Assembly: GCA_032128875.1 (NCBI GenBank)
Contig: JAVLKG010000001.1
Coordinates: 1,081,453-1,145,452 of the forward strand
Direction of reading: 5' to 3'
DNA: 64,000 bases
From: Candidatus Melainabacteria bacterium 17Bon1m
GTDB lineage: Bacteria; Cyanobacteriota; Vampirovibrionia; Obscuribacterales; Obscuribacteraceae
Shown: piece after piece, positions 36,334-52,803 of the stretch
Layout of the letters: each line of letters opens with the position of its first letter
How positions within the stretch are numbered: position 1 is the first letter of the stretch
The notes under the pieces: generated by a model
The model's database searches: none
What the model was told of the DNA's origin: nothing
What the model saw: only the letters and a program-made list of their open reading frames with translations
Position numbers and translations under genes: made by a program

Positions 36334-36918
36334 CTATGTCATCTGCTTGAGTAGTGCGCGAAGAGCTGCTGTATCAGCGCGTTTCATTGGTTTGTTTGTG
36401 ACGGACGAATAGAGGACTGTGTCTCTCCAACTCCACGGGTAGACTGTAATTTCGACTGGGTATTCTCGCTCGTACCATTTCAAATGCACAAAACGGCCTT
36501 TGCGATTGTCCACCAACTCTACGTCGACATCCTCGTAACCCCAGTCTTCAAGCTGGTTTTGCAGCATGGTGTAGTCATCGCTGTAAGCGTGCAGATCGAT
36601 ATCGGAGCTGTCTCGAATTTGTCCAGATAGTGTACTGCCGATGAGAAAAGGATCTGAGTCTTCTATTACTTGCATTATTTCCAGCGCGATTTCGCGCATC
36701 TCTCGAATGCGACGTTTTACCTCATCGTGTCCTAACTGGCTGGCGGTGAGTAATGCGATACATTCTTTTATTTTTTTGTTGGACGGCAAATGACTATTGC
36801 TGGAAAGACCGAGCATCGATATGGCACGCTCCTTCGCGTGCAGATATTCTGCTTCCGCTCCTTCAACAATAAATCGAGCCGCCTCCTCTGCGACTCTGCG
36901 TCTTTCTTTTTTTGGCAT
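36334..36918 (-). CDS. Pol-beta-superfamily nucleotidyltransferase domain protein
   Basis: LIGSTLSG..SSDIDLH (hGS..DxD) after an N-terminal helical region with LPSN. Confidence 0.8.
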   Translation of the reverse strand: MPKKERRRVAEEAARFIVEGAEAEYLHAKERAISMLGLSSNSHLPSNKKIKECIALLTASQLGHDEVKRRIREMREIALEIMQVIEDSDPFLIGSTLSGQIRDSSDIDLHAYSDDYTMLQNQLEDWGYEDVDVELVDNRKGRFVHLKWYEREYPVEITVYPWSWRDTVLYSSVTNKPMKRADTAALRALLKQMT

Positions 36919-37016
36919 AAATTTGCAAGTCGAATACTTGCTTTCAGGGCGCTACCGGCCATCGCTGCCGGACATCCGAGACTTCCGCAACTTTTAGTCT
37001 ATCACTCTGCCCAGAA

Positions 37017-37919
37017 TTATCGAAGAGAAGAAAGATGCTTAACAGTGCGCTCGCCTTCTTCCTCTAGAGTGACCGACGAAGGCGATACCGCTATGACATT
37101 CAGAAAGTCGACAGTGTCCCCGGGCGACAGTGCAAGGGTTTTCGGCAGCCTGTATGTGCGCCTTAAATTTTGATCTGTGACCGACATGAAAGCTTTGTCA
37201 CCGAGAATACCAACCAGCTTTAGATGTTTTGCTATGGAAGGCTTTTCTGGAGGCGTGGGTAGCTCTGAAAGAGGAAGTGACTCGCCTTGTGCGCCGGAAA
37301 GAATAGGAGGAGGGGGCGGCGGAATTCCGTCTATTGGAGGCGGAGGGATGAGTCCGGTCTTGTGGCTGGAATGCTTCTCTTCCTCAGGTTTGCTCAGCCT
37401 GCGCTCGCCAGAGGTTGGAAATGACCGGTATCCGCTGATTGGCGCCAGGGGATCGATTTTTCCGGCACTTTCTCTAGCCATTGGCGCTGCCTGTTCGCGT
37501 GTAATTGCAGGCAGAGCATAGGCTGATTGAGTGGAGAGAGCTAGTCTTGCCGCAGCAATTTCGGGCGATGTTGTCTTCTCGGTTTCACCCGGCGACATCA
37601 GGTGATTGGGAATGTCTTTGAGAGAATCTTGCAATTTCGCAATATTCGAACCGATCGCATTGGGATCCATTACTTGCGATGCCGTCTTGCTCACGCCGGT
37701 AATGGAATCTGTGATGATGTTTGTAGATGTAGTCGTTGTTACCGTAGTCGTGCTCGTGGCAGCGGCGGCAGCCGGCTTTTGCGCCACACGCTTAGGCGGA
37801 AGCACAGCATTTTGCTCCTCAGCCATTCTGGTTTCATCATTGATGTGATTGATCCACAAGAATGCCCCTCCAATGAGGAGCACACCGGCAGTGACCAGAA
37901 GTATTAATCGGAAAAGCAT
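37017..37919 (-). CDS. PilP/GspC-like membrane-anchored pilus protein
   Basis: N-terminal TM, Pro/Thr-rich linker, C-terminal LKLVGILGDKA..PGDTV..VIAVSPSSVTL beta domain; directly after pilO. Confidence 0.6.
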   Translation of the reverse strand: MLFRLILLVTAGVLLIGGAFLWINHINDETRMAEEQNAVLPPKRVAQKPAAAAATSTTTVTTTTSTNIITDSITGVSKTASQVMDPNAIGSNIAKLQDSLKDIPNHLMSPGETEKTTSPEIAAARLALSTQSAYALPAITREQAAPMARESAGKIDPLAPISGYRSFPTSGERRLSKPEEEKHSSHKTGLIPPPPIDGIPPPPPPILSGAQGESLPLSELPTPPEKPSIAKHLKLVGILGDKAFMSVTDQNLRRTYRLPKTLALSPGDTVDFLNVIAVSPSSVTLEEEGERTVKHLSSLR

Positions 37920-38624
37920 CTAAGGTAAATAATAAACCGAAAGGAGAAAACACATCACAGGTTGGCTAAGCTTCAGCTTTTTCGCCCGATCGGAGGCTTT
38001 GTCTGTTTCAGCTTTGGCCTCTTCTTTAGGAACAGCGATAACTACGTGCGAGACGCCCATGACTCGCTCGTAAGCTTCGATATTGCGGACAAATTGCACC
38101 ATTGAAGCGTAATTGCCTGTCACATAGACTTCTTTGTCAATTTGCTTGAGCCCTAATTCGCTGCCTACATCTGCCGGTTTTGAGGCGAGCGGCGCGGGGG
38201 CGGCTGGTTTTGTTTCTTTAGGCTTCGGTTTTGCTTGCTTGCCTTTCAGATCTTCAAGCATCTCAACCATTTCTTTGCGAGACTCTTTTACATCTTCCGT
38301 GCCCGGTGTTTCAAATCCGATCAAGTCAACGTTGGCTTGTTTAGCCAATCTTTCTAAATCAATCAAAAGCAAATCAACGTTTGCTTCTTTAGGAACTGCG
38401 TTGCGCAATGAAGCAATATCCGCGACAAGAGCTTGTTTTTCTCTATCTATTCGAAGCTTCTCTTTTAGCTTCAAATCGAGCTGCTCTTTTTGCTGCCTGT
38501 GCTGTGTGAGGTCAACCATTTTTGCAGACTCTTCATTTATGCACGGGTAAACGAGCATAGCAAAAACCAGGATGGCAAGCCCATAAATGACAGCGAGAGC
38601 ACCGTACTGAAATCTAGTGAGCAT
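37920..38624 (-). CDS. pilO: Type IV pilus assembly protein PilO
   Basis: TM, coiled coil, VPKEANVDLLLIDLERLA, VTGNYASMVQFVRNIEAYER. Confidence 0.85.
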   Translation of the reverse strand: MLTRFQYGALAVIYGLAILVFAMLVYPCINEESAKMVDLTQHRQQKEQLDLKLKEKLRIDREKQALVADIASLRNAVPKEANVDLLLIDLERLAKQANVDLIGFETPGTEDVKESRKEMVEMLEDLKGKQAKPKPKETKPAAPAPLASKPADVGSELGLKQIDKEVYVTGNYASMVQFVRNIEAYERVMGVSHVVIAVPKEEAKAETDKASDRAKKLKLSQPVMCFLLSVYYLP

Positions 38625-40428
38625 TGTTTTCACCGCCCGCTAGTTCAGCAATTTTTTGACTTTTGATTGATTGACTGCCGGTTTTTACCGGTTGTGACAT
38701 CGTATTTGATTGTGGTTGGTTCGGTGTAGTCGAAGTAGATGCAGGTGCTTCAGAAAGTTTTGCTGATATTGAAAAATCCAAACGTTCTGGAGTCTTTTCC
38801 TGCCGTGTCACCCAGTCCACCTGAGAATCTTGGAGAAAGACAGAACCACCCATATTGATCGCGAGATTTGAAACACTATTGAAGTCGATGGCAATACCTT
38901 CGACCTTCATTTCTTTTCCGCGTAAAGTAATTCTGTCAATTTGAACGCCTTTCGGAGTGTCGATTGTCAATTCAGAAAGCAGAGCAGACCAGCGATTATG
39001 TTTTTTCAAAAGAGCGTCCAGCACTCGTTTTCTGGCGCTTAAAATCGTATTCTCCTGGCGCGTGTTCGCCATCGATTTTATTTGCTGATTGCCCAACATA
39101 ATTTCATTAGAGAGCGTTTCGATCTCTTGCTCTTTTTGAGGCAAATCGACATAGCGCATGATTCCATATGCAGCTAGCCCGAGAGCCAGCAAGGCAATTC
39201 CTGCAATCAATACTGGTTTTTGCCAAGCAGGAGGACCTATTGAGAGATCCTTCGTCATTGTCTGTGTGGCACGCTCATCAAAGAGCAGTGGCACGCGACC
39301 TTCTTTATTTAAATCGAGGTCGACCGTGTATGAAGGATTCCACGTTGGTTCAATGGACGAACCAATAAGGGCGGCAAGAATTGGGCGCATGCGATCGACG
39401 ATTTCTGTTTCGTCATGCCTGATGTCTCGCATCGGATCGCTAATTACCGTGCGCACATTCAATTTATTCGAGAAGAATTGATCAAGCCCGGGCACCATGC
39501 AACCCGGACCGGCAAGGATAATCTGGTCCATCTTCACGTCGCCGACTTGCGAGCGATAAAATTCCAGTGACTTGGAAAGCTCGTCGGATATGTCACTAAA
39601 TATGGTGCGAGCTACTTGAGCCGCTTGTCCCATTTTGGGATCGGTTGGATTCGGATTGAAGATCGAAATCTCCGGCAACATGTCGAGTGCTTGATCGAAT
39701 GGCATGTCCAGGCTTCGTGAGACAGCCTCGGTCATGGCTTCGACACCTAGCATTACGGAGCGCCCAAAGAGAGGCATGCAACTGCGGACGATGTTGATGT
39801 CGGTTGCGTCTTGCCGCATGTTTACTATCATCGAAAGATGCCCGGATGACCCGAGATATCCGGACAACGCCATGCTTCGAATGACCGCAAGAGATGATAC
39901 TTCGACCCGACCGAGTTTTGCTCCGGCAGCGTCAGCCATACGCCAATAAGCTTCGACGATGCTGCGCTGGATTGCTGCAAGAATGACATCGACTCGTCTG
40001 ACGCCATCGAAGTCTGTTCGCTCCGTCGCCGGCATTACAGCCCAGTCCAGGTTGGCGTCGGCAATTGGAAATGGAACGTGATTGGTCGCTTCCTGGGTGA
40101 CGACGTCTGCCAGCTCGTCCTCCGGCATACCTACAGGAACCGGCATCAGACGAATTACCACAGCTTGAGCCGGAACGACGATGTTAAGAACCGGCGTTTG
40201 CCCGGATGGAGGCACACCGGCTTCATTCATCAGGTCGATGACGACTTCGCCGATTAATTCAGGTTCGGCAACTACACCTTCCCTTACCGAGTTAGCCGGC
40301 GTAGGCTGGCAAGCAAAACGAGCCACTTCGATTCCGGCGCGGGTTTTTTCCAGCTGCAAAAGAGTAATGCTGTCGCTGTTTATGTCCAGCCCCAGCGTCG
40401 GTCCTTTGCGTTTTCCAAAACCGAACAT
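38614..40428 (-). CDS. pilM: Fused PilM-PilN type IV pilus assembly protein
   Basis: LGLDI actin-like PilM, SLEFYRSQ, then DLNK, a TM helix, coiled coil and WSALLSEL..TPKGVQI PilN domain in one frame. Confidence 0.88.
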   Translation of the reverse strand: MFGFGKRKGPTLGLDINSDSITLLQLEKTRAGIEVARFACQPTPANSVREGVVAEPELIGEVVIDLMNEAGVPPSGQTPVLNIVVPAQAVVIRLMPVPVGMPEDELADVVTQEATNHVPFPIADANLDWAVMPATERTDFDGVRRVDVILAAIQRSIVEAYWRMADAAGAKLGRVEVSSLAVIRSMALSGYLGSSGHLSMIVNMRQDATDINIVRSCMPLFGRSVMLGVEAMTEAVSRSLDMPFDQALDMLPEISIFNPNPTDPKMGQAAQVARTIFSDISDELSKSLEFYRSQVGDVKMDQIILAGPGCMVPGLDQFFSNKLNVRTVISDPMRDIRHDETEIVDRMRPILAALIGSSIEPTWNPSYTVDLDLNKEGRVPLLFDERATQTMTKDLSIGPPAWQKPVLIAGIALLALGLAAYGIMRYVDLPQKEQEIETLSNEIMLGNQQIKSMANTRQENTILSARKRVLDALLKKHNRWSALLSELTIDTPKGVQIDRITLRGKEMKVEGIAIDFNSVSNLAINMGGSVFLQDSQVDWVTRQEKTPERLDFSISAKLSEAPASTSTTPNQPQSNTMSQPVKTGSQSIKSQKIAELAGGENNAH

Positions 40429-40531
40429 TATTCAAATCCGCATTCAGATTTACAGGTCCACATGTTCAAGTTTAGTCCAAAATCGGCCTTATATAGATGC
40501 TTTAATGAGATCTGGCTGACTTGCCCCTGGC

Positions 40532-41605
40532 TCACATTCTTTCGGCCGGGAAAATCGAGTGTGGCATTATGAACATCGAGACTCCAGCGGCCATCGCCAA
40601 TGCTGGACCGAACGGGAAGGGTTTGGAAACTCTTTTGCCGGTCCAGATATAAGCGAAAACACCGGATGCGATGGCAAATATTGCTATTGATACGCCCCAC
40701 TGAACTTCCCAAATAGACTGGCTGCTTACCTGCGCCAAAACGGAGAACATAGCGGTGCCGACAACGGCCGCGACACCAAACCAAATGAGCCCCCACTTGA
40801 GGCAATGTCTAAATATGCCTGCCTTCTTCATCTCTCGGGTCAGATAAACTCCACCCAGGAGTGCACCAAGGATGAAACCAAGCATAACCGCAACTATTAA
40901 GCGCTCCCAGCCAAGCCAAGCAGAAACCAGAGCAGCCAGCACGGCATCGCCGCCGCCCATCACTTCGAATTCTTCTTCCTCTTTTGCTGGCCCTACTTCA
41001 AACACTGCGTCGATTTCTTCATCGCCCTCTTCTTCCTCCGGCGTCTCTTTTGATTCGGGGTGCAGATACGGATAAAGTACGAGTCCATAGAAAGCAATGA
41101 AGTCAAAGAGGATATAGCTGCCGCCGATACCGGCCATGGTGCCAACTAGATCGTTGCGAACCAAACCGCTGAACATAATTCCAAGAAGAATGGAAGGATA
41201 AGTAATCTCGTGCGGGATGAGCTTCTCGCGGAAGTCCGTGACGGTTACAGCAATCAGCACCGAGGAGAAATAGAGCATGCCGAAGCCTTCAGGCGTCAGG
41301 CCAAACCGCCAGATAACAACCATGAACCAGAGGGCAGTAAATAGTTCAACAACCGGATATTGCCATGAGATTTTTTTCTTGCAGTGCTTGCATCTTCCGC
41401 CGATCAAAAAATAAGAAGCGATCGGAATGAGCTCGAAGGGTCCCAATCTCTTGTCGCAATCGGGACACGAAGACGGCGGCCAGAACACGTTTTTCTCAGC
41501 CAACGATCGAATTGCCAGTACATTGAGAAAGCTGCCGACACACGCACCCACAACAAATGTGAGCGAGTAGAGCGCTGCCGGTGAATCTGCGATAGATATG
41601 CTCAT
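40532..41605 (-). CDS. pilD: Prepilin peptidase/N-methyltransferase
   Basis: GSFLNV, CPDC..CKHC, ISWQYPVVE, TDF, MGGGDA, PFGPAL. Confidence 0.93.
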   Translation of the reverse strand: MSISIADSPAALYSLTFVVGACVGSFLNVLAIRSLAEKNVFWPPSSCPDCDKRLGPFELIPIASYFLIGGRCKHCKKKISWQYPVVELFTALWFMVVIWRFGLTPEGFGMLYFSSVLIAVTVTDFREKLIPHEITYPSILLGIMFSGLVRNDLVGTMAGIGGSYILFDFIAFYGLVLYPYLHPESKETPEEEEGDEEIDAVFEVGPAKEEEEFEVMGGGDAVLAALVSAWLGWERLIVAVMLGFILGALLGGVYLTREMKKAGIFRHCLKWGLIWFGVAAVVGTAMFSVLAQVSSQSIWEVQWGVSIAIFAIASGVFAYIWTGKRVSKPFPFGPALAMAAGVSMFIMPHSIFPAERM

Positions 41606-42423
41606 GTGAATTCTTTTCTTTCTGTCACTATAGCTGCTAAAACCAGCAGCATGAGGACATAGGCAAGCACATAAGTGATGAGGTAGGTCAGTACCTCAGT
41701 CCCTGGAACTGTCCCATACAAAAGATGCCCGCGAATTCTGGTCAAGCCGGCAAAATCGGGAAGACAATAAAAAACTATGCTGAGGCATTGCGCAAGAAAT
41801 GGATTTTGAGAAAGTTTGCCCAATTCCAAAAGAGACTCTCCCAGATGTCCTGCAAGCCAGATTGCCAGGGTGAAAAGCACGCTCATGACCGGGGTTGAGA
41901 ACGTCGAAAAAAACGTAGCCAGGGCGGTTACGAATAATAGTTCTAGGTAAATAAGCGACAGTTCTTGAGTAATTTCTCTAAGCTGATCAAAGAAAGAAGC
42001 GCCTCCAAAACCGCTGCCAACCGAAGCAACAATTATGGAGAGAAACGCTCCCATCGCCGCTACCATGACCAGAACGCAGAGGCAAAGACCGATATATTTC
42101 CCCAGCACAAACTGCCATCCGCTCACAGGCTTCGTGAAAATGATGTAGATGGTGCGTCTCTCGAGTTCTTTATAAACAAGATTGGTGCCTGCAAAAACTG
42201 CGATGATGCCACCAATTAGAGAAATTGCCGCAAGCCCGATGTCCTTAAGGATGCGAATATCCTGACCTACGGATAGCGAACCGAGAATTATGCCGAGTAC
42301 GGTGACAATCGCGGCGAAAAGAATCAACGCGTAAATAATGCGGTCGCGAACTGTCTCACGAAAAGTGTTCAGCGCTATCGCTATGACCGCATCGACGGAA
42401 TTGTTGCGGCTGTTCTCGCTCAT
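41602..42423 (-). CDS. ABC transporter permease (PilI-like)
   Basis: IALNTFRETVRDR, KELERRTIY..TKPVS..FVLGKY; within the pil locus. Confidence 0.85.
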   Translation of the reverse strand: MSENSRNNSVDAVIAIALNTFRETVRDRIIYALILFAAIVTVLGIILGSLSVGQDIRILKDIGLAAISLIGGIIAVFAGTNLVYKELERRTIYIIFTKPVSGWQFVLGKYIGLCLCVLVMVAAMGAFLSIIVASVGSGFGGASFFDQLREITQELSLIYLELLFVTALATFFSTFSTPVMSVLFTLAIWLAGHLGESLLELGKLSQNPFLAQCLSIVFYCLPDFAGLTRIRGHLLYGTVPGTEVLTYLITYVLAYVLMLLVLAAIVTERKEFT

Positions 42424-43220
42424 GAGACAGCCTCCTTCGATTGAGTTCCGGCAGCTGCCGCCGCGCCGCTGTCCGCTTCGGCTTTTGCAATTACCTCGAG
42501 GAAGAAATCTTCCAGGTCTTTGTAATTACCCTGCCCCGAAATGTTCTTCACTTTCTCCTGCACCACCATGCGCCCCTTGAACATGACGCCGACCCGGTCG
42601 CAGACCTCGTTGACGTCCGGCAGCAGATGGGAGTTGAAAAATATAGTGGTGCCTTTTTCTTTTAGAGAAAGAAGAATTTGGCGTACATCTCGGCGCCCGA
42701 TCGGATCGAGACCGGACATAGGCTCGTCCCAGAAGACCAGTTCCGGGTTATTGATCAAAGACTGCGCGATGCCCAGCCTTTGCAGCATTCCTTTGGAATA
42801 CTTACGCATCTGCATGTCTGCCGCTTCACTCAGTCCGACTGTCTTTATCAGTTCGCCGGCGCGCTCTCGCCTTTGTTTTGATTCGATACCGAACAATTGA
42901 CCGGCAAAATCGAGAAATTCCCTGCCGGTCAAATGTGAGTAGAAGTATGGGTTTTCAGGCAAATAGCCGAGTTTTGCCAGTGCGCGTTTGTCGCCTGCGG
43001 GCATGCCAAGAATCTCTGCTTTCCCTTCCGTGGGCCGCATCAGTCCTAGCATCAGTTTTATGGATGTAGTTTTGCCCGCCCCGTTCGGTCCGATCAGACC
43101 AAACGTTTCGCCTCTGGTTACGCTCAAATCCAGCCCGCTTAGAATACGGACTTTGCGGCGTAAAAGACTGCTGGTTAGCTCTTTAGATAAGTTGGTCGTT
43201 TGGATGACAACATCCGACAT
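42420..43220 (-). CDS. ABC transporter ATP-binding protein (PilH-like)
   Basis: GPNGAGKTT, GYLPENPYFY, YSKGMLQR, DEPMSGLDP. Confidence 0.92.
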   Translation of the reverse strand: MSDVVIQTTNLSKELTSSLLRRKVRILSGLDLSVTRGETFGLIGPNGAGKTTSIKLMLGLMRPTEGKAEILGMPAGDKRALAKLGYLPENPYFYSHLTGREFLDFAGQLFGIESKQRRERAGELIKTVGLSEAADMQMRKYSKGMLQRLGIAQSLINNPELVFWDEPMSGLDPIGRRDVRQILLSLKEKGTTIFFNSHLLPDVNEVCDRVGVMFKGRMVVQEKVKNISGQGNYKDLEDFFLEVIAKAEADSGAAAAAGTQSKEAVS

Positions 43221-43223
43221 CGA

Positions 43224-44105
43224 CTAACTGCCTTTCTGACCACCAGTCTTTCTGTTCTGCGTGATGATCTTATGGAGTTCGGCAGTTGCTGCTCTCAGTC
43301 GGCGAGAGACTTGCATCTGCGAAATTCCCAAGCGGCGCGCTACTTCTGTTTGGCTCAAATCTTCGTAGAAAGTCAGCTGCACGACTTCGCGCAGACCATC
43401 TCTCAACTGTTTGATTGCCTCAGCCAACATGAAGCGGTCTTCTTTCGCCATCTGATTTGTTTGGTATTTGCCATCCACCAGAGTGTCGATGAGCGACTGC
43501 TCGGAGCCTGCATCGTTGGACAGCGCTTGGTCCAGAGAGATCAAAGTGCGTCTGCGATCGACTTCGTATGCTTCATTGACGCGGCTGACTGGAATTTCCA
43601 GTTCATGCGCGATTTCAACGTCTGAAGGCTCGCGGCCAAGACGTGCAGTAAGACTTTGCACCAGTCTATTGATGCGGAAGGACAACTCCTGCAATTCGCG
43701 CGGTGCACGAATCATGGCAGTCTTGTCTCTCAGATAATGTCGAATTTCGCCAGTAATCAAGTGTGTGGCGTAAGTTTGGAACTTGGCGCCGGCATCGGGC
43801 TTGAACTGGTCGACTGCCTTGATGAGCCCGATAGAGCCCACCTGGATCAGATCTTCGACAGGGTCGGTCGAGCGTCGCGCCAGACCGTAGGCAATTCTTT
43901 TCACAAGCGGTAAGGACGCTTGGATGATCGAGTCACGCATGGCCGGATCGCGAGATTCAGAATACACAGATAGCCAGTGGTGAATCTGGTCTGTACCTTT
44001 TCCTGTTGCGTCCATTTTGGCCGTTGTGCCGCTCGATATAGATGATGACTTTGATACGTACAAGCTTTTGCTCACTTGATATATTTTCACAGACCCGCCA
44101 GACAT
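43224..44105 (-). CDS. sigF: SigB/SigF/SigG-family RNA polymerase sigma factor
   Basis: EDLIQVGSIGLIKAVDQF, GEIRHYLRD, LGREPS, ISLD, DLSQTEVARRLGISQMQVSRRL; start may be downstream. Confidence 0.9.
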   Translation of the reverse strand: MSGGSVKIYQVSKSLYVSKSSSISSGTTAKMDATGKGTDQIHHWLSVYSESRDPAMRDSIIQASLPLVKRIAYGLARRSTDPVEDLIQVGSIGLIKAVDQFKPDAGAKFQTYATHLITGEIRHYLRDKTAMIRAPRELQELSFRINRLVQSLTARLGREPSDVEIAHELEIPVSRVNEAYEVDRRRTLISLDQALSNDAGSEQSLIDTLVDGKYQTNQMAKEDRFMLAEAIKQLRDGLREVVQLTFYEDLSQTEVARRLGISQMQVSRRLRAATAELHKIITQNRKTGGQKGS

Positions 44106-44172
44106 ATTGTAGAACCCTAAGGCAGATTAGCAAACAAAAAGATTAATCGCCAGTGCTTGGAAATATGAATTG

Positions 44173-45405
44173 CTATCTAAGTTGTTCGATTACGGTGAAA
44201 ATCGGCAGATACATACCCACGACAACTGACCCGACAATTCCCCCAATCCCAACAACCATGATGGGTTCGAGCAACGAGGTCAGTGACTCGACAGAGTTGT
44301 CCACTTCCATATCGTAAAATTCGGCGACTTTGGTCAACATCTCGTCCAAATTCCCAGTTTCTTCTCCAACCGCCACCATTTGAGTGACCATGGCCGGAAA
44401 GAGGGAAATTCTTGCCATCGGTTTGGAGATGGACCCGCCCTGTCTTACCTCGTTGTAGATTTTCTCCACCGAACGGGCAATGCTGGCGTTTCCGGCGGTG
44501 TCTTTGACCACGTCAAGAGCAGATAGCATTGGTACCCCGGCTTTGATTAGCGTGCCGAAGGTGCGGCAAAAGCGGGCTATTGCAACCTTTCTTGATAAAT
44601 CGCCGAAGAGTGGAAGCGATAGAAAGATGCCGTCTATGTGCTCGCGCCCCTTTTCCGTCCGGTAATAACGCCGGACAAAATAGAGAGAGACAAGGACGCA
44701 TACAACGAAAAGCGCCATCCAAATAGAGCGCATGTATTCCGACAGGCTCATCAAAAATCTTGTGTAAGCCGGCAGTTCTGACCCTATGTTTTTGAAGAGT
44801 CCTTCAAAAATAGGCAAAATAAAGGTCAGCATCACCCAGAAAACAAGAACGGCAATTGCCAACACTACCGAAGGGTAAACCATTGCTGAGCGCACTTTTT
44901 GGTTGAGCTTCTGGCGAGCCTCCAGAAAGTCGGCAAGACGGGTCAAGACCTCCGCCAGAAATCCGCCTGCTTCTCCTGCTCGGACCATAGACACATATAG
45001 CTTGTCGAAAACCCCGTGCTGCCGCACCAGTGCGTCCGAAAGCGACAGCCCCGACTCTACCGAGCGCCGCACTTCTTCCAGGCAAGACTTCAATTTCCTG
45101 TTCTTGCACTGCTCGACAATAATAGAAAGAGTCCTCAAAAGAGGCACCCCGGCGCTAATCATGGCGGCAAATTGGCGGCTGAAGACAACCATGTCCTTAA
45201 GCCCGATTGGCTCCAGCTTTGCCACTGCAGCATCAAGCTCGGCAATCATAGGAATTTGCATGAGCGAAAAGCCGCGCTCTTTTATTTCGATCACTTCATA
45301 GCCGCGTGCTGAAAGGCGGGCTTGAAGCAGTTGAGCGTTTTCAGCCTTAGCTGAAGACTCCCGGATCGCTCCGCTCATATCTTTTACTTTATAGACAAAG
45401 TCCAT
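44173..45405 (-). CDS. pilC: Type IV pilus platform protein
   Basis: FSRQFAAMISAGVPL, AGEAGG, SAMVYP, VGEETGNLD, LLEP..MYLPIF. Confidence 0.95.
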   Translation of the reverse strand: MDFVYKVKDMSGAIRESSAKAENAQLLQARLSARGYEVIEIKERGFSLMQIPMIAELDAAVAKLEPIGLKDMVVFSRQFAAMISAGVPLLRTLSIIVEQCKNRKLKSCLEEVRRSVESGLSLSDALVRQHGVFDKLYVSMVRAGEAGGFLAEVLTRLADFLEARQKLNQKVRSAMVYPSVVLAIAVLVFWVMLTFILPIFEGLFKNIGSELPAYTRFLMSLSEYMRSIWMALFVVCVLVSLYFVRRYYRTEKGREHIDGIFLSLPLFGDLSRKVAIARFCRTFGTLIKAGVPMLSALDVVKDTAGNASIARSVEKIYNEVRQGGSISKPMARISLFPAMVTQMVAVGEETGNLDEMLTKVAEFYDMEVDNSVESLTSLLEPIMVVGIGGIVGSVVVGMYLPIFTVIEQLR

Positions 45406-45430
45406 TTCGCCCTTCAGCCAAATTCATGAC

Positions 45431-46582
45431 CTAACCGAAACTACCATAGCCGAATCCCTGGCTTCCGCCGGCTCCGGTTCTTGTCGGGGCTTTCGACGCG
45501 GACGCCAGCAACTGTTCCAATTCGTCGGGTCTGGATGTTTTGGCCAGAGCATCTGCCGCGCTGATTGCATTCTGTTTCACCAGTGCTGCCAGGGCTGCTT
45601 CCAAAGTTTGCATCCCGAGATTGCCGCCCATTTGAATGGATGAGTAAATTTGAGCTGTTTTCGATTCTCGAATCAGGTTGGAGATAGCTGCAGTATTGAT
45701 AAGTACTTCTGCTGCAAGCACCCGGCCTTTTGTGACTGGGCTGCCGCCCGCTGATTCCTGCATACGTGGCAATAAGGTTTGGCTGACAATTGCCACCAAG
45801 CCGTTCGATAACATGATGCGAATCTGTTGTTGTTGGCCCGGGGGAAACGCGTCGATAATGCGATCGATGGTTTGTGGTGCAGAGCTCGTGTGCACTGTGC
45901 CAAACACAAGGTGACCGGTTTCTGCTGCCGTAAGCGCCAGGTGGATAGTTTCCAAATCCCGCATTTCACCCACTAAGATGACGTCAGGATCTTCTCTAAG
46001 CGCAGAGCGAAGTGCGTTGGAAAAACTTCTTGTGTCCGCTCCCAGTTCTCTTTGAGAAACAACCGATTTCTTGCTCGAGTGCAAGAACTCAATCGGATCT
46101 TCAATCGTGAGAATGTGTTCGGAACGATTTTCATTTATATAGTCGATCATCGAGGCAAGTGTCGTCGACTTGCCGGAGCCGGTCGGACCAGTGATAAGAA
46201 TCAGTCCGCGTGGCTTTTGCGTAATTTCCTTGCAGATATTCGGCAGGCACAGGTCGGCAAGCGACGGTATTGAGGATGGTACTACGCGAAATGCTGCCGC
46301 ATAATTGCCACGTTCTTTAAATACATTGATACGAAATCGCCCAACTCCATCAATCCCAAAACTCGCATCCAATTCCAGATTGGTTTCCAAAAGGTGTCGC
46401 TGCTCAGGCGTCAAAACCTCAAAGACCAGTCTCTCTACATCGGACTGCGAAAGGGTGGGAAGTTGGCTGCGCAAGAGCTTTCCAGACACACGTATGACAG
46501 GGGGCTGCCCGACTTTCAAATGCAAATCCGATGCCGACCGGTCCTGAACCAGTTGGAGAATTTCCTGCATCTCAATTTGCAT
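45431..46582 (-). CDS. pilT: Twitching motility retraction ATPase
   Basis: ASDLHL, TGPTGSGKSTT, ALREDPD, AAETGHLV, AISNLIRE (AIRNLIRE variant), GMQT. Confidence 0.95.
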   Translation of the reverse strand: MQIEMQEILQLVQDRSASDLHLKVGQPPVIRVSGKLLRSQLPTLSQSDVERLVFEVLTPEQRHLLETNLELDASFGIDGVGRFRINVFKERGNYAAAFRVVPSSIPSLADLCLPNICKEITQKPRGLILITGPTGSGKSTTLASMIDYINENRSEHILTIEDPIEFLHSSKKSVVSQRELGADTRSFSNALRSALREDPDVILVGEMRDLETIHLALTAAETGHLVFGTVHTSSAPQTIDRIIDAFPPGQQQQIRIMLSNGLVAIVSQTLLPRMQESAGGSPVTKGRVLAAEVLINTAAISNLIRESKTAQIYSSIQMGGNLGMQTLEAALAALVKQNAISAADALAKTSRPDELEQLLASASKAPTRTGAGGSQGFGYGSFG

Positions 46583-46596
46583 ATCTGCCCCCTACG

Positions 46597-48660
46597 CTAC
46601 ATCTTCTTCGGCTGCTTCCTTGGCTCCTGGCAATACGGGCAACGCGACCATTCGCCTAGAATTTCAGCATTGCATCCAGTACATTCTGTCTCTCTTTGTG
46701 CTTCCTCTTCTGTCAGTCCGCACTTCGGGCAACTTGTCCATCCTTCTTGCTGCAGTGTTCCGCAACGCTGGCAAGTTGTCTTCAGATCGTGCTGGCAGAA
46801 TGGGCATTTTATAAAATCGTCGCTTATAGGTGTTCGGCATTTAGGGCAAAGCTTGTCATCACCTTCGGTATCAGCCAGGGTCACTCTCACTACTTCATCA
46901 GCCGTCGTCAAGCCCTGACCAACCAGGCGAATACTGTAGTCTTTGAGTGTGATCATGCCTGATTGCTTGCCTGCAAAACGAATCATCGCCGTACTTGAGC
47001 CTTTGGAAATGAGGTCTCGCAGTTCATCATTCATGCGCATGACTTCGAAAACACCGATACGATTTTTGTAGCCGGTTTGATTGCAGCCATCGCATCCAAT
47101 ACCACGCTGAAAGATCGGCCAGCCATTTTCGTCAGTTCTAAAACGGAAATACTGAATAGTTGATTCAGCTGGTTTTTCTTGGAGACGGTCGAGAACACCG
47201 AGATATTCGAGTGCTGACCTCTCCGGTTTATACTCTTGTATGCAGTCAGGGCAAATGCGTCTCACTAATCTTTGGGCGACAACTCCAATGGTCGCCGATG
47301 CCACCAAATACGGGTCCACTTCCATTTCTGCAAGACGAGTAATTGCGCCGGGAGCGTCATTCGTGTGCAATGTGGTGAAAACCAAGTGACCAGTGAGAGC
47401 CGCTTCTACAGCGATTTTTGCTGTTTCACGGTCGCGGGTTTCTCCAACGAGCATGATGTCCGGATCTTGACGCAAGAATGAACGCAATATTCTGGCAAAG
47501 TCCAGTCCTTTTTCACGCAAAACCTGAACCTGCGTAATTCCTGCCATCTCGTATTCAATCGGGTCTTCGGCAGTGACGATATTCACTTCGGGCGAATTGC
47601 GCTCGGCAAGCGCAGAATAGAGGGTCGTTGTTTTTCCTGAACCAGTTGGTCCGGTGACGAAGATAATGCCGTAAGGCTTGCTGACCATCTCGCGAATGAC
47701 ATCAAGGGTGCTCTCATCGCTGACGAGTTTATCCAATCCAAGCATGGTGCCGGACTTGTCGAGCATTCTCATCACAATCTTTTCGCCGTGCTTGGAGGGC
47801 AACGAAGATACCCGGAAGTCAATGTCTCTGCCGGAAAACCGCACTCTAATTCGTCCATCTTGTGGCAAGCGTCTTTCTGCTATGTCCATGTCTGCCATGA
47901 TTTTGTAGCGCGAAACGAGCGCTGCCAAAATCGCACGCGGCAACTTGCGATCGACGAACAGAACACCATCCAGGCGATAACGAATTACAACGGAATTTAC
48001 CGTCGGCTCGATATGGATATCAGAGCAATGTCTTTTGATGGCTTTGGCAAGTACCTGGTTGGCGAGGTGAACGATCGGGGCATCCTGCGCTTGTTTTGCA
48101 AGGTCAAGATCGTTGATGTGATCTTCGGCACTGCTGATTAAGTCGAGCGTTGAGAGATCGACTTCTGCTTCGATGAATGTTTGATCCGCTTCCTCATACG
48201 ACTCTTCTTGCAGCAAATCTTGGCGCGATGCATAGATGTTTTCCATGAAATGCTGGAAGTCGTCTTCTGTGCAAACCATGGTCTTAATCTGCATGCTTTT
48301 CAGGCGATATTTGATATCGTCCAGTGCCAGCAGGTTATTGGGATTGACCATTGCCACCATCAGGCAATTGCCTTCGCTACTTACCGGAACGACCTGGTGC
48401 TGGCGCATCAAAGTCTCCGGTAATAGTTCTAATGCTCCGAGCTCTGGCTGTGATTTTGCCAGTGAAATATATTTGACGCCGAACTGCATTTCCAGAGCGT
48501 TCTGCAGATGGGTTTCATTGGCCAAACCAAGCCGAGACAGAATCAAACTAATCGGCTCGCCGGTGCGAAGCCTCTCTTGCTGAACGAGCTTCAACTCCTC
48601 GGCAGTAATCAGCCCGTTGTCTACGAGCAGTTCTCCAAAATCTTTCTTGATTAGTGCCAT
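46597..48660 (-). CDS. pilB: Type IV pilus extension ATPase with C-terminal Cys-rich zinc ribbons
   Basis: MshEN-like N-terminus, SDIHIEP, RLPQDGR, TGPTGSGKTTT, LRQDPD, ALTGHLV, six C-terminal CxxC. Confidence 0.95.
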   Translation of the reverse strand: MALIKKDFGELLVDNGLITAEELKLVQQERLRTGEPISLILSRLGLANETHLQNALEMQFGVKYISLAKSQPELGALELLPETLMRQHQVVPVSSEGNCLMVAMVNPNNLLALDDIKYRLKSMQIKTMVCTEDDFQHFMENIYASRQDLLQEESYEEADQTFIEAEVDLSTLDLISSAEDHINDLDLAKQAQDAPIVHLANQVLAKAIKRHCSDIHIEPTVNSVVIRYRLDGVLFVDRKLPRAILAALVSRYKIMADMDIAERRLPQDGRIRVRFSGRDIDFRVSSLPSKHGEKIVMRMLDKSGTMLGLDKLVSDESTLDVIREMVSKPYGIIFVTGPTGSGKTTTLYSALAERNSPEVNIVTAEDPIEYEMAGITQVQVLREKGLDFARILRSFLRQDPDIMLVGETRDRETAKIAVEAALTGHLVFTTLHTNDAPGAITRLAEMEVDPYLVASATIGVVAQRLVRRICPDCIQEYKPERSALEYLGVLDRLQEKPAESTIQYFRFRTDENGWPIFQRGIGCDGCNQTGYKNRIGVFEVMRMNDELRDLISKGSSTAMIRFAGKQSGMITLKDYSIRLVGQGLTTADEVVRVTLADTEGDDKLCPKCRTPISDDFIKCPFCQHDLKTTCQRCGTLQQEGWTSCPKCGLTEEEAQRETECTGCNAEILGEWSRCPYCQEPRKQPKKM

Positions 48661-48807
48661 GGTCTTGAGTCTCCAGAAGTGGAAAACAACCGACCTGCGG
48701 TTGATTTTCGACTTAGATTACAAAGCTAACTTTCCACTTTCTTTCTTATAAATACCGGTTGGGCCCAAATCAGAACAATTCGATGTAAAACCGTCGATGC
48801 TCGAAGA

Positions 48808-51054
48808 CTACTCAATCCAGACGAGAATGTGCTCACCGCCTGCGGTATGGGGAACAACGGTCAATCGCAGGTTAAAGTCTTTGCCGGACATTCTGACTTT
48901 GACCCGGCCATCCTGGGGCAAGCGCCTGTCTTGCTGATCGACGCGACCCATTTTACGAAAACGCTGAGTGAGCGCCGGCATCAGCATTTTTGGCAGCTTG
49001 CGCACTATCATCAACTGACCTTGAATGCGGTAGTGCACCAAAACCTGCTTGTCCATTGCCTCTACGTGAATGGTTGAAGCACCTTTGGCAATGCCGTTGG
49101 CTAAGATTTGATTGCAGAGCATGATTACAGCGGCGTCATCACTTTCTTTCTCGAGAGCATCAGGTTGTTTCTGCTCGGTAGAAGTGCGAGCGATCGACTC
49201 GCTTGCAACCGGTTCGCATTCGCCAAGACCTGCTTCTCCAGTGGATTTCGGTGTGATTGCTTTGAATTCTTCGCTGGCCTGCTCCAATTTGACTTCGGTT
49301 GTTTTATCTTGTAAAACCTGCTTTGTCTCTTCCTTCGTCGCAGCCGCGGAATCAGCCTCTGGCTCAGGCTTTTTCTCTTCCTTCGGCTCAGGCTTGGATT
49401 CTTGCGCGGGCGGTTTTTTCTCGACAGTCGGACTGACTAGTGCGTCGAATTCACCTGTGGCCTCATCATCTTTGAGCCCCGCTTTGCCTGGTTCTTCTGC
49501 CAGCTCTTTGGCCAATTCTCTGGCGACATCTCTGGCATCCGGACGTTCTTTTTTTGTTTCCGACTTGGATTCTGATTTCGTTTCTGATTTTGTCTCAGCC
49601 TTTGTCTCAGCCTTGGTCTCCGTATCTGAGCCCTTGTCCTCGGTTTTCTTTTGAGGCTCGGCTTCTGCCTTGGGCTCTTCTTTCTTTTCTTCTACTGACT
49701 CAGCCTTCTTCTCGTCTTCGGACTCCGGTTTTTTCTCGTCTACCGGTGCAGCTTTTTTCTCAGCCTCCGGCTCTGATTTCTTCGCTTCAGAGTCTTTGTT
49801 GTCCTCTCTGGCTGGTTCAACCTTTGTTTCAGGCGCCTCGACCTCTTTCTTTTCTTCAGCCTGTTTTTCTTTTGGTTCTTTATCTTCAGTTTTTGCCGCA
49901 GGTTCGGACCCTGCCGACTTTGAAGTATTATCAGCCGGCTTCTTGCCAGCCTTATTGCGGGTTTCTTCAATATGCTTTTGCAGCATGTTTAAGTCGAATT
50001 TGCCGGTTTCGTCGTTTGTCGGTATTTCCGGCTCAGTCCTGAACATATTGTCGAGTTCGGACTTATAGGCGCTGTCTAAATCTGCTTTGACTACAATTTC
50101 TGGCTCTGTTTTGCCAAGAGATGCTGATTCTGCCTTCGCTTTCGCTTCAGCCTCGGCTTTTTGCGCTTCTACTTTCGCTGCTTCCGCTTTCTCTGCTTCC
50201 GCTTTCTCTGCTTCTGCTTTCTGTGCAGCTTCTTTGTCCGCCGCGGCCTTATCGGCAGCTGCTTTCTCGCTTTCAGCCTTCTCTTTTTCTGCCTTTTCTC
50301 TCGCTTCAGTTTCTGCCTTGAGCGCTGCCTCAGCGTCTGCTTTGGCTTTTGCCGCGGCTTCTGCTTCAGCCTTGGCGGCTGCTTCTGACTCTGCTTTGCC
50401 CTTAGCTGCAGCCTCAGCCTCAGCTTTTGCCGCAGCTTCTGCTTCCGCCTGGGCTGCTGCTTCTTGTTCGGCCTTGCCCTTAGCGAGGAATGCGGCTAGA
50501 GGCGAAAGTGTCGGCTTCTCCTCTGCTTTTGCTTCAGCAGCAGGAGCAGCTTCTTTCTTGCTTGAGTTCTCATCCTTGGCGCCATTATTGCCTTTGTCCG
50601 TTGGCTTGGCGTCTAAATTCTCCTGATAAAGATTGCTCATGAACAGCATGAAGTCGTCTTCAGTACAGACGACGGGCGTGAATTGCCTGTCTCCGAAATA
50701 TTGTTTGAGCGCCGCCAAGCCCGTTGAATGCTCAGGATTGACCATGACAACGGTTATGCGTGAGCCTTTCTCATTGACTGGAACCATCATGTGTTCGCGG
50801 ATCTTCGCTTCCGGCACGATCTTCAAAATTTCCGGTTGAATTTCTGTGCGCGCCAGGCTGACGTATGTGACCCCGTATTTGAGCTCCAGGGCGTTCTTAA
50901 AATGGTGTTCGTAAGCTAGTCCAAGTCTCGACAAAATGATGCTGAGCGGCTCTCCGGTGCTTTTTGCCTCTCTCTCGGCAAGCCGCAATTCATCGGCGCT
51001 TATTTGACCGTTGTCGACCAAAAGTTCGCCGATGGATTTTTCCACTACTGACAT
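48808..51054 (-). CDS. PilB N-terminal-domain paralogue lacking the ATPase domain, with long A/E/K-rich linker
   Basis: KSIGELLVDNG..TGEPLSIILSRLGLA matches the PilB N-terminus; ends with IHVE..RRLPQDGRV..GGEHILVWIE*; no Walker A; ATG 51054 (ORF track 51306). Confidence 0.85.
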   Translation of the reverse strand: MSVVEKSIGELLVDNGQISADELRLAEREAKSTGEPLSIILSRLGLAYEHHFKNALELKYGVTYVSLARTEIQPEILKIVPEAKIREHMMVPVNEKGSRITVVMVNPEHSTGLAALKQYFGDRQFTPVVCTEDDFMLFMSNLYQENLDAKPTDKGNNGAKDENSSKKEAAPAAEAKAEEKPTLSPLAAFLAKGKAEQEAAAQAEAEAAAKAEAEAAAKGKAESEAAAKAEAEAAAKAKADAEAALKAETEAREKAEKEKAESEKAAADKAAADKEAAQKAEAEKAEAEKAEAAKVEAQKAEAEAKAKAESASLGKTEPEIVVKADLDSAYKSELDNMFRTEPEIPTNDETGKFDLNMLQKHIEETRNKAGKKPADNTSKSAGSEPAAKTEDKEPKEKQAEEKKEVEAPETKVEPAREDNKDSEAKKSEPEAEKKAAPVDEKKPESEDEKKAESVEEKKEEPKAEAEPQKKTEDKGSDTETKAETKAETKSETKSESKSETKKERPDARDVARELAKELAEEPGKAGLKDDEATGEFDALVSPTVEKKPPAQESKPEPKEEKKPEPEADSAAATKEETKQVLQDKTTEVKLEQASEEFKAITPKSTGEAGLGECEPVASESIARTSTEQKQPDALEKESDDAAVIMLCNQILANGIAKGASTIHVEAMDKQVLVHYRIQGQLMIVRKLPKMLMPALTQRFRKMGRVDQQDRRLPQDGRVKVRMSGKDFNLRLTVVPHTAGGEHILVWIE
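49553..50460 (-). repeat. Coding low-complexity repeats (AEAEAAAK, AEKAE, ETKA/ETKS)
   Basis: Visible 12-30 nt periodicities inside the PilB-paralogue linker. Confidence 0.7.
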
Positions 51055-51311
51055 TAAGACCGCCTTTTCATTAATTTCGCCGTCTTGGTGACAGCTTGGA
51101 AGGCTCGGACTCCGGCATGTCTGGTCGCCAAGAGATGCTGCTGTAAAGCCTTCCCAAATTTTGTGCCCGCTGCTTTTTTCTATTAAACAGACTGTATACA
51201 GATCAGAATATGAGACTTTAATTTGCCGTGTGCAAGAATAGCTAGCAAGGGTTTTGCGATAGCGCCTTTGAATTTCAGGGCTTTTCCAGCGATTTATTAT
51301 CTGCACAAATC

Positions 51312-52721
51312 ATGACTGAAAGAGCCGAAGAAACCAAAGAGGAAGCCACAAAGGATACGCTTTTGAATTCAGAGCCATCGAATTCCCCTAAAGGCAATGC
51401 GGCAAATAAAATGGACAAACCAATTCCCACGGCTTGGGGATACCGCGGGTTTGTTTTGGTAAGTTGCACCTTCGTCATTTTCGAGCTTATTTTTGTCACG
51501 CTATATTCGACCACATCATGGTTTTCCACCGATATCCGGTACCTAGGAATACCAGTGGTAATCGTTTTGCTTCCCATTGCCCATCAAATTCTCCTCTCTT
51601 TCGAAAGGAAAATCCTTCTGAAAATCGCCTCGCCTCTGCGCGATGGTTTGCCACTAATTTTGTATTGGAATTGGATAAAACTCGACGAAACCGCGCTTTC
51701 AATCGGGCTGAGAAAGGTTGCGTATTCTGCAATCGATGAACTGAAACTGACTATTTGGGGAAATTTGCACATCCGTACTCGCGCGTTGCGTACCGGCTTC
51801 GAGAATACGAGCGATGCTCGAATTTCGGCTGGTGATGGGAATGTTTCGACCGGAGACGCCCGTGTTTTAGCAGATGATGCCAGTGTTTCGGCTGCTTCTT
51901 CTAAGGGCGAACCCACTGATCTGATTTTCAAGCTGCCACTGGGAGTGGTATCGCCTCAATTTCAAAAGATGTTGATTGAAACTGTGAAAAAGGCAAATCC
52001 GCATGTGGAGATCAATAAGCGTTTGAGAAAGCGCCTTTCGCAGCAGGATGTTTCAACCACTCAAATGGTAGGCGTGATGGGCGCAGCTTTTCTGCTCATA
52101 GTACTTCTCGACTTAGGCCAGGCTTCTTACACGTCCCTGGATGTTTTGAAAAACTATTACCTTGCCGATTTGAATGCCCGGAAGCACGAGATGGCTGTTG
52201 CCGAAAGCTATCTAGAAACTGGCGATAAGCTCATAACCGGTGCACTGCCGATGTCCTGGATCAAGACGAAATTCTTTGACGAAGGTAATGGTGCTGCAGG
52301 TGTCAAAGTTGCGCGCGCTGAAGCGCTTTGGCAGCTTGGACGTCGAGAGGAGGCGGTCGCCGAATGCCGTAACGCCTTAAAGCTTTCACCGAAGGGCTTT
52401 CGTATCAACTTGCGAATGGCACGCATGCTGACCGCAATGGGGTCTCCGAAAGAGGCGAAAGCCGAAATTGAGCAGGCTATGGAGGCAAATAAAGACTCTT
52501 TCGTGCCAAACGAATACATGATGGCGTTGGCGTTAGAGACATCCGGCAAGCTGGAAGCCCAAAAGCTCTACGAAACATATCTTAAGGAGCTGGATGAAGA
52601 GGTCTTCGGCGAAGAGCCTGTGTGGCCTCCGGGCGGCGAGCGAATGATACACAACGTCTGGTTTAGGGAGGACTTGACATTCCTGTTTCAGCGCCTTTTC
52701 AAACAGCTTGGGCGCTCTTGA
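51312..52721 (+). CDS. Membrane protein with C-terminal TPR repeats
   Basis: Two N-terminal TMs, one central TM, ARAEALWQLGRREEAVAECRNALKLSP. Confidence 0.78.
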   Translation: MTERAEETKEEATKDTLLNSEPSNSPKGNAANKMDKPIPTAWGYRGFVLVSCTFVIFELIFVTLYSTTSWFSTDIRYLGIPVVIVLLPIAHQILLSFERKILLKIASPLRDGLPLILYWNWIKLDETALSIGLRKVAYSAIDELKLTIWGNLHIRTRALRTGFENTSDARISAGDGNVSTGDARVLADDASVSAASSKGEPTDLIFKLPLGVVSPQFQKMLIETVKKANPHVEINKRLRKRLSQQDVSTTQMVGVMGAAFLLIVLLDLGQASYTSLDVLKNYYLADLNARKHEMAVAESYLETGDKLITGALPMSWIKTKFFDEGNGAAGVKVARAEALWQLGRREEAVAECRNALKLSPKGFRINLRMARMLTAMGSPKEAKAEIEQAMEANKDSFVPNEYMMALALETSGKLEAQKLYETYLKELDEEVFGEEPVWPPGGERMIHNVWFREDLTFLFQRLFKQLGRS

Positions 52722-52803
52722 TTTCTTAGACCTAGTCAATTTATTGAAGACCTCGAAAGAGGTATCATCGTTAGCCAAATAGTAAGGCTTTTCGAGTTTT
52801 TTG

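Follow-up and report, generated by a model that had tools for sequence, protein, structure and literature searches.

The window analysed here, a stretch of 64,000 nucleotides (nt) from Candidatus Melainabacteria bacterium 17Bon1m, contains a run of type IV pilus genes (36334-51054, in coordinates of the whole window) in which the gene for a group 3 sigma factor lies between pilC and an ATP-binding cassette (ABC) transporter pair. Taken as one claim, it is probable that this run is where a non-photosynthetic relative of cyanobacteria keeps its main type IV pilus genes, and that the embedded sigma regulates these pili and goes back to a SigB-like sigma whose tie to pilus genes already existed when the Cyanobacteriota last shared an ancestor. 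An ancestral connection between SigF and pili, proposed in an earlier sequence-only reading of this DNA, thus gains support from three independent kinds of comparative evidence: gene order (linkage in three classes), tree position, and, ahead of pilin genes, a promoter motif of SigB/SigF-like form.

Gene order and ancestry of the sigma factor

A match to the sigma occurs in 186 of 201 Vampirovibrionia genomes, nearly always once; second copies aside, matches from its own family are 82-100% identical to it. Neighbourhoods were surveyed over about 9.5 kb on each side in 60 of these 186 matches, picked to span families; f1 denotes the window sigma's own family, and coded families take their group names from the named loci that group with them in the trees. 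A further 80 named loci, which show the same linkage pattern, possibly overlap the coded genomes and were kept out of the counts. Within f1, ten of twelve loci carry the whole run of pilB, pilT, pilC, sigma, ABC ATPase, permease, pilD, pilMN, pilO and pilP, some with a small insertion after pilC, and pilC lies directly upstream of sigma in 10/12; the remaining two retain a PilB fragment, sigma and pilD. Across the class, pilD is found downstream of sigma, with or without the ABC pair, in 38 of 60 loci (f2 2/2, f3 2/2 with the ABC pair, f5 3/4, f6 6/6, f9 9/9, f11 4/4), and an ABC ATPase follows sigma in 12 of 60.

The linkage extends beyond this class. In Sericytochromatia, pilC lies directly upstream of sigma in 27 of 46 loci (15/28 + 12/18), covering six of seven families, and in several loci the two genes abut or overlap; loci lacking an upstream pilC include a separate paralogue clade (0/10), family f12 and contig ends. 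One Sericytochromatia locus (L278 / L206) has a pilC frame overlapping an extended sigma frame of 543 amino acids (aa), probably merely two overlapping open frames. In Gloeobacterales, 13 of 14 genomes have SigF and pilB arranged head-to-head, and in the single locus examined in full, pilT and then pilC follow pilB. Among other cyanobacteria, none of 32 loci from 22 genomes has pilB, pilT or pilC within about 9.5 kb of the sigma, and one of the 32 has a pilD-like open reading frame (ORF) 9.8 kb away on the opposite strand. Gloeobacterales are described as basal among oxygenic cyanobacteria in excerpts of PMC7690421.

The position of the sigma beside pilus genes is thus conserved in all three Cyanobacteriota classes. 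Because the linkage is shared by the two non-photosynthetic classes and the earliest oxygenic order, it is most simply read from gene order as ancestral to the phylum. Several observations weigh against this reading. The sigma has no pil neighbour in f4 (0/8), f7 (0/5), f8 (0/7) and f10 (0/1), where it is flanked by housekeeping genes, nor in Sericytochromatia family f12. It is also kept where pilC was not found with the query used (f2 0/2, f7 0/9 and G045), and one f6 genus (G087) has pilC and no sigma match at the threshold used. Pili are therefore not the sole business of the sigma, and the sigma is not needed everywhere.

As a separate observation, pilC was not found and the sigma was kept at L035 and L041 (genus g5) and in f2 and f7, with pilD also kept in g5 and f2. 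These lineages suggest themselves as a natural place for non-pilus targets of the sigma.

The protein itself carries sigma70 regions 2, 3 and 4 and shares about 31-38% identity with cyanobacterial copies. In the careful tree of 78 rows, it groups with a named Obscuribacter sequence (100/96), by which the host is assigned to Obscuribacterales, class Vampirovibrionia, and the clade of Vampirovibrionia and Sericytochromatia sigmas (99/96) is sister to cyanobacterial SigF/SigJ (94/89) and does not branch from within the oxygenic clade. The Cyanobacteriota grouping excludes Firmicutes SigB as well as sporulation and actinobacterial sigmas, and its sister clade includes one cluster labelled Actinomycetota. 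A quick tree of 219 rows, including 144 of the 150 best profile matches, concurs on the SigF/SigJ grouping (Shimodaira-Hasegawa-like approximate likelihood ratio test, SH-aLRT, 97), and a clade of the window sigma with Firmicutes SigB is rejected by the approximately unbiased test (p-AU 0.0018). A linker motif is common to the pil-linked Sericytochromatia sigmas, the Gloeobacterales copy and a widespread cyanobacterial clade; the window sigma retains part of it. The pil-linked sigmas have a region 4.2 almost the same as in SigB, and this region is altered in cyanobacterial copies and in a second sigma of the host genome, the C3 paralogue. The best match in the Protein Data Bank (PDB) is 8x6g chain H (256 aa), which we take to be Staphylococcus aureus SigB.

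Family models place the protein near SigF without admitting it. The best NCBIfam model is PRK07408, for cyanobacterial SigF, at 223.8 bits against a curated cut-off of 261, followed by TIGR02980 (SigBFG; 205.7 against 234.35), TIGR02941 (SigB; 159.1 against 315 bits) and TIGR02479 (FliA/WhiG, sigma28; 126.4 against 189.6 bits), none of which reaches its cut-off. Oxygenic copies score about 278-428 bits with PRK07408, so this model covers the oxygenic clade. Judged from these models and the trees, the window sigma is of SigF/SigB type, in keeping with the sequence-only assignment, and is not a typical cyanobacterial SigF. The shortfalls on PRK07408 and TIGR02980 count against a close SigF identity, as do two features of the tree: the union with cyanobacterial SigF/J, at 94/89, is just short of the starred level; and the second host sigma (C3:434780) joins the cyanobacterial SigF/J clade (99/93), on a long branch. 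The alternative of forcing it out of that clade is not rejected (p-AU 0.079), although the best tree keeps it in.

This C3 paralogue (G000:C3:434770-435670; L273:9781-10671) is a second SigF-like sigma, present in 20 of 23 genomes of family f1 and in none of 97 others. It has a SigB-type motif just upstream and no pil neighbour. By analogy with the SigJ-SigF pair of Nostoc, it could act as the downstream sigma of a two-step cascade. As a side observation, Sericytochromatia families f12, f24 and f26 hold extra unlinked paralogues with altered region 4.2, branching beside the Vampirovibrionia sigmas (L134-L138, L140, L145-L148).

The placement of the C3 paralogue raises the question of hidden paralogy: an early duplication could have produced one pil-linked copy, represented by the window gene and kept in the non-photosynthetic classes, and another that became cyanobacterial SigF/SigJ and the C3 paralogue, so that the window gene may regulate pili and yet not be the orthologue of SigF. 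The careful tree fits this history, as it joins the C3 paralogue to cyanobacterial SigF/J (99/93) and unites the Vampirovibrionia sigmas with those of Sericytochromatia (99/96). In species trees, Vampirovibrionia usually stand closer to oxygenic cyanobacteria, which points the same way. Nevertheless, the branch leading to the C3 paralogue is long (0.93), the paralogue was found only in f1 and lacks pil neighbours, a union of pil-linked and cyanobacterial sigmas is not rejected, and the Gloeobacterales SigF itself adjoins pilB. On balance, this duplication is unlikely, and direct descent of a pil-linked sigma in the phylum is preferred.

A recent sideways origin fares worse. Here the pil cluster or the sigma would have come from another lineage, such as Myxococcota or Firmicutes, and the two would have met by chance in family f1. 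Such an event would fit the finding of the complete order, ABC pair and pilMNOP included, in f1 only, the presence of the ABC pair after sigma in only 12 of 60 loci, and the Atlas neighbours of the pair, which come mostly from Acidobacteriota and Armatimonadota clusters. It is very improbable, however, in view of the linkage in all three classes, a sigma tree that broadly tracks the family groupings, the rejected Firmicutes SigB origin and the flat GC content across the window.

A promoter motif before pilin genes

The third line of evidence comes from upstream regions of pilA. The set comprised 36 metagenome loci with a relative of the host pilin plus the host genome (G000), of which 35 were usable, as one lacked a gene start and one had less than 240 nt upstream. 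An exact GTTA-N16-GGGCA site is present in 32/35 and a near form in 34/35, representing 27 distinct sites; shuffles of the same regions give a mean of 0.035 and at most 1. The element GGGAATAT upstream of pilA was first taken as a J-box (a cyanobacterial pilus promoter word, see below), and the alignment of orthologues pointed to GTTA-N16-GGGCA instead. In the host genome, a loose form of the motif precedes four of twelve chosen regions, with 0.014 expected for each: pilA, the first gene of the run, an 1823-aa MshEN-repeat protein and the C3 sigma. Among the same twelve regions, it is absent before pilB itself, pilD, pilM, a minor pilin and three secretins.

A related pattern appears in Sericytochromatia, where 5/5 genomes have one or more pilin matches with a GTTTR-N15-GGGAA site 38-122 bp upstream. 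The wider form GTTTR-N15-GGGHA likewise falls within about 130 bp of a pilin in all five. By hand calculation from counts, about 0.0004-0.002 sites are expected by chance in a 200-bp window. G255 and G243 had been seen when the pattern was settled, and only G211, G217 and G219 are independent tests. Among five genomes of other Vampirovibrionia families, only G001 has the motif, before one of its five pilins. We infer that the pil-linked sigma reads the pilin motif, because its region 4.2 is SigB-like, because G211 has the motif with one such sigma found, and because G001 has the motif with no C3-type paralogue found.

The motif evidence has weak points. The pilA loci are kin and not independent; no more than 5 of 12 same-family loci have the motif ahead of their first pil gene, and the site at 51164-51188 is by itself within chance (4 matches in the window against a shuffle mean of 1.83). 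In Sericytochromatia, only 8 of the 26 pilin-like matches listed have the motif, and the best G211 match is without it. It is likewise missing before the best pilin match in four of five genomes of other Vampirovibrionia families.

Several further sites deserve a record of their own. In Sericytochromatia, the motif comes right before pilC or sigma itself at L275-L277 and L292 (f24) and at L141, L142, L144 and L283 (f26), which suggests from site position that autoregulation may have moved within the locus in these two families. A SigB-type site directly before sigma is found in 0/12 loci of f1 and in 4/31 Sericytochromatia loci. Sites at G000:C3:472111 and C10:149830 precede small proteins with N-termini that are TadE/pseudopilin-like by eye. 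Two PilB-like proteins lacking the ATPase are also preceded by the motif, one in the window (48808-51054, 748 aa) and one at G000:C4:677741-683212 (1823 aa). Both combine MshEN with N-terminal T2SSE parts, and their score with the cyclic diguanylate (c-di-GMP) model is below the cut-off; as judged from domains, they are possible c-di-GMP-sensing adaptors or PilB inhibitors. Directly after pilA lies a conserved 256-aa protein with a weak TPR match (G000:C3:969334-970104; L293:1135-1905), PilG-like by position only and with no family match or informative name.

Layout of the locus and a putative circuit

The run comprises twelve ORFs, all on the minus strand and with the expected families, as the sequence-only reading had it. 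In order of transcription, with the two promoter-like sites, its features are as follows.

51164-51188, minus strand: SigB/SigF-type promoter-like motif GTTT-N16-GGGCA, 134 bp upstream of the run's first gene (motif match)
48808-51054, minus strand: truncated PilB paralogue, 748 aa, with MshEN, a long charged linker and the N-terminal part of T2SSE (Pfam)
46597-48660, minus strand: PilB extension ATPase, with MshEN and a C-terminal double zinc ribbon (family matches; sole full-length copy found in the genome)
45431-46582, minus strand: PilT retraction ATPase (TIGR01420, 482.5 bits, cut-off 319.1)
44173-45405, minus strand: PilC platform protein (two T2SSF domains; single copy found)
44106-44133, minus strand: sigma70-type promoter-like site TTGCTA-16-TACAAT before the sigma gene (similar site in relatives)
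43224-44105, minus strand: group 3 sigma of the Cyanobacteriota SigF/SigJ-related clade, with SigB-like region 4.2 helix (families, trees)
42420-43220, minus strand: ABC ATPase, PilH-like by family and position (ABC_tran)
41602-42423, minus strand: ABC-2 permease, PilI-like by family and position (ABC2_membrane_2/4)
40532-41605, minus strand: PilD prepilin peptidase (A24_N_bact and Peptidase_A24)
38614-40428, minus strand: PilM-PilN fusion (PilM_2 and PilN; TIGR01175 over cut-off)
37920-38633, minus strand: PilO (PF04350, 26 bits, cut-off 22)
37017-37919, minus strand: PilP-like protein, named by position only (after pilO in 10/12 same-family loci)
36334-36918, minus strand: putative nucleotidyltransferase-fold protein (Pfam matches below cut-off)

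The genes are tightly packed. The sigma stop (43224) precedes the ABC ATG (43220) with 3 nt between them, the spacing already read from the sequence; overlaps of 4 nt join the ABC ATPase to the permease and the permease to pilD, and pilMN, pilO and the pilP-like gene abut. BLAST finds PilT, PilC, PilD, PilMN and full-length PilB as single copies in the host genome. The double zinc ribbon forms the end of PilB (window 46597-46850) and presumably resembles the Cys-rich C-terminal extension of cyanobacterial PilB. No pilin N-methyl or secretin family was matched among 17 ORFs scanned in or beside the run, in agreement with the reported absence of a major pilin and secretin; the pilin (C3:968771-969304), minor pilins (C2:1.121 Mb) and three secretins lie unlinked elsewhere in the host genome (G000). 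The host has the type IVa pilus components PilB, PilT, PilC, PilD, PilM/N/O, pilin and secretin, with PilP by position only. Neither a photosynthetic reaction-centre protein nor RpoN was found in this genome, which is 93% complete.

Three gene calls of the sequence-only reading need qualification. The first gene does belong to the MshEN/T2SSE family of PilB, yet it is truncated, occurs patchily among relatives and lacks a Walker A motif, and is therefore not an ATPase. The pilP-like call stands on position after pilO, and the protein (37017-37919) has no Pfam match and weak Atlas leads only. The nucleotidyltransferase remains a weak call and is probably a bystander, since its gene trails the run only in very close relatives (0/12 same-family loci, 3/80 named loci). 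Beyond the run, a divergent TPR protein and a DUF1574/DltD-like protein (window 51312-54039) are kept beside it across family f1.

The first ATG of sigma (44105) sits only 1 nt past the conserved TACAAT box, so the true start, as predicted from this spacing, is probably GTG 44075 or ATG 44015. Of 12 same-family loci, 11 have the sigma70-like site just before the gene, where shuffles average 1.2, which counts against a sigma expressed solely with the pilus genes; in other families, it occurs in 8/48 loci against 8.8 by chance. A scan of the window for consensus promoters and terminators gave no excess over shuffles (8 against 13.3 promoters), and this site was retained because it is conserved in relatives. 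Independent transcription of the sigma, which had been named as a point that would count against the link, is thus partly borne out by a predicted promoter. Four RNA-labelled runs were set aside as transcription evidence: they yield only 60-72 kb contigs with flat depth over both strands and flanks. These DNA-like contigs come from one sample, possibly the source of this DNA, and are uninformative on transcription.

In the proposed circuit, the housekeeping sigma would provide basal expression of sigma-ABC-pilD(-pilMNOP) from 44106-44133. The sigma would then read GTT(T/A)-N16-GGG(C/A/T)A before the unlinked pilin, before the run (51164-51188) and before a few other genes, which would include the second SigF-like sigma. 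Read-through from 51188 over pilB-pilT-pilC would add positive feedback on sigma. Oxygenic cyanobacteria would have kept the function, Gloeobacterales also the linkage in inverted, head-to-head form, and later lineages would have lost the linkage.

A broader role competes with this circuit: the sigma may be a general SigB-like stress or cell-surface factor, with pilin as one target among several or the linkage as a relic of gene order. Its retention where pilC was not found, its own sigma70-like promoter, candidate motif sites before non-pilus genes and an RsbR/S/T-like cluster in the host genome are all compatible with such a role. On the other side, across the genome the strict motif is no commoner with spacer 16 than with other spacers (21 matches against 18-31), the loose motif has a modest excess upstream of genes (44/145 against 15-22% at other spacers), and pilA is the top match to a position weight matrix built from pilA sites; by these counts, the regulon looks small. 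Nor does an anti-sigma gene adjoin the window sigma, unlike rsbW-sigB in the Firmicutes outgroups. This reading, as a general sigma or as a relic, is quite improbable. Separately, the cluster of RsbR/RsbS/RsbT-like and anti-sigma-kinase-like genes (G000:C2:55632-60529), named by eye from N-termini and from HATPase_c_2 matches, might feed a SigB-type sigma through an unlinked partner switch.

The preferred reading, an ancestral pilus sigma, can be extended into a fuller history that, taken as a whole, falls somewhat short of probable. Before oxygenic photosynthesis, the last common ancestor of all Cyanobacteriota would have had a pilB-pilT-pilC-sigma(-ABC-pilD-pilMNOP) locus that regulated itself; its SigB-derived sigma would have taken the slot and role that PilS/PilR-sigma54 have in myxobacteria and read a SigB-like bipartite promoter. 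In the oxygenic lineage, the gene would then have been inverted, as in Gloeobacterales, region 4.2 would have changed, and a looser -35 element would have produced SigF promoters and J-boxes; separation from the pil genes and duplication would have come later. A separate two-sigma cascade may have arisen in parallel within Obscuribacterales.

Significance and known systems

Control of pili by SigF and SigJ underlies phototaxis, hormogonia, biofilms and competence in cyanobacteria. Linkage in three classes and a conserved pilin motif suggest a date for this circuit before oxygenic photosynthesis and a tie to SigB-type promoter recognition. The uncultured Vampirovibrionia and Sericytochromatia gain a concrete candidate sigma-promoter pair, testable in E. 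coli or Synechocystis, and the group offers a natural test case for how changes in region 4.2 shifted -35 specificity. No account of the linkage, the motif or the origin of the SigF/SigJ-pili wiring was found in a literature search with subscription papers and bioRxiv supplements outside its reach. A 2024 survey of cyanobacterial sigmas mentions neither Melainabacteria nor synteny in its main text (PMC11119718), and the Melainabacteria genome paper, in the sections available, lists pil genes and no sigma factors (PMC5877343).

Synechocystis PCC 6803 SigF (Slr1564) is described, in parts of two papers, as using a pilA1 promoter with a GGG-n-A core and a TAGGC upstream element, and as autoregulated (PMC2532724, PMC2758279). 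The window sigma shares the group 3 architecture with regions 2, 3 and 4 and a pilin promoter with the GGG-n-A core; its autoregulation is predicted, where that of Synechocystis SigF is reported. It differs in the upstream element, GTT(T/A) instead of TAGGC, in its SigB-like region 4.2 and in being embedded in a pil locus.

In Nostoc punctiforme, excerpts of PMC6495340 assign pilB-C and pilM-Q to SigJ and pilA to SigF, with J-boxes before pilB in many cyanobacteria. The J-box shares its GGG-n-A core with the host motif. In contrast to this division of labour, as far as those excerpts describe it, one motif here precedes pilA, the pilB run and the second SigF-like sigma, and a single sigma may cover both roles. 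The same excerpts show Nostoc sigmas as monocistronic or with hypothetical genes, and the -35 of the J-box as weak where that of the host motif is strict (PMC6495340). In Gloeobacterales, J-box-like words face pilB in the intergenic stretch in 6 of 11 regions and none face the opposite way, a count not used as main evidence, as gene starts are poorly placed in several regions and the word is short.

The host motif closely resembles the bipartite SigB promoter, given for Bacillus subtilis in the available text of PMC9847131 as GTTTAA-N15(+/-2)-GGGTAT, and the region 4.2 helix is nearly identical to that of SigB. Unlike SigB of Bacillus, Staphylococcus or Listeria, the window sigma lies outside the SigB clade, and its regulon looks small and centred on pili instead of general stress. 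Neither rsbV nor rsbW stands beside it; its neighbours are pilC and the ABC ATPase, with the Rsb-like cluster on another contig.

PilR requires sigma54, in keeping with a Sigma54_activat domain. The portions of PMC6060248 that cover Anaeromyxobacter and Archangium show clusters with pilB-pilT-pilC, pilS-pilR, an ABC_tran/ABC2_membrane_2 pair near pilD, and pilMNOP(Q). The window has the same ABC_tran and ABC2_membrane_2 pair beside pilD, and ABC2_membrane_2 is the family listed there for myxobacterial PilI (PMC6060248). The names PilH and PilI are absent from the best 120 of 581 ABC homologues, all close relatives, and no plasmid match was found. Where those myxobacterial clusters place pilS-pilR (Sigma54_activat) after pilC, the window has a sigma70-family sigma in that slot; unlike in them, pilA and pilQ lie away from the run, and the host genome gave no RpoN match. 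The mosaic locus proposed from the sequence alone is not supported, because those myxobacterial clusters share the order and the sigma-pil link looks inherited, and the flat GC content agrees. As far as gene order tells, an old, shared pil layout carrying a different regulator is the better description.

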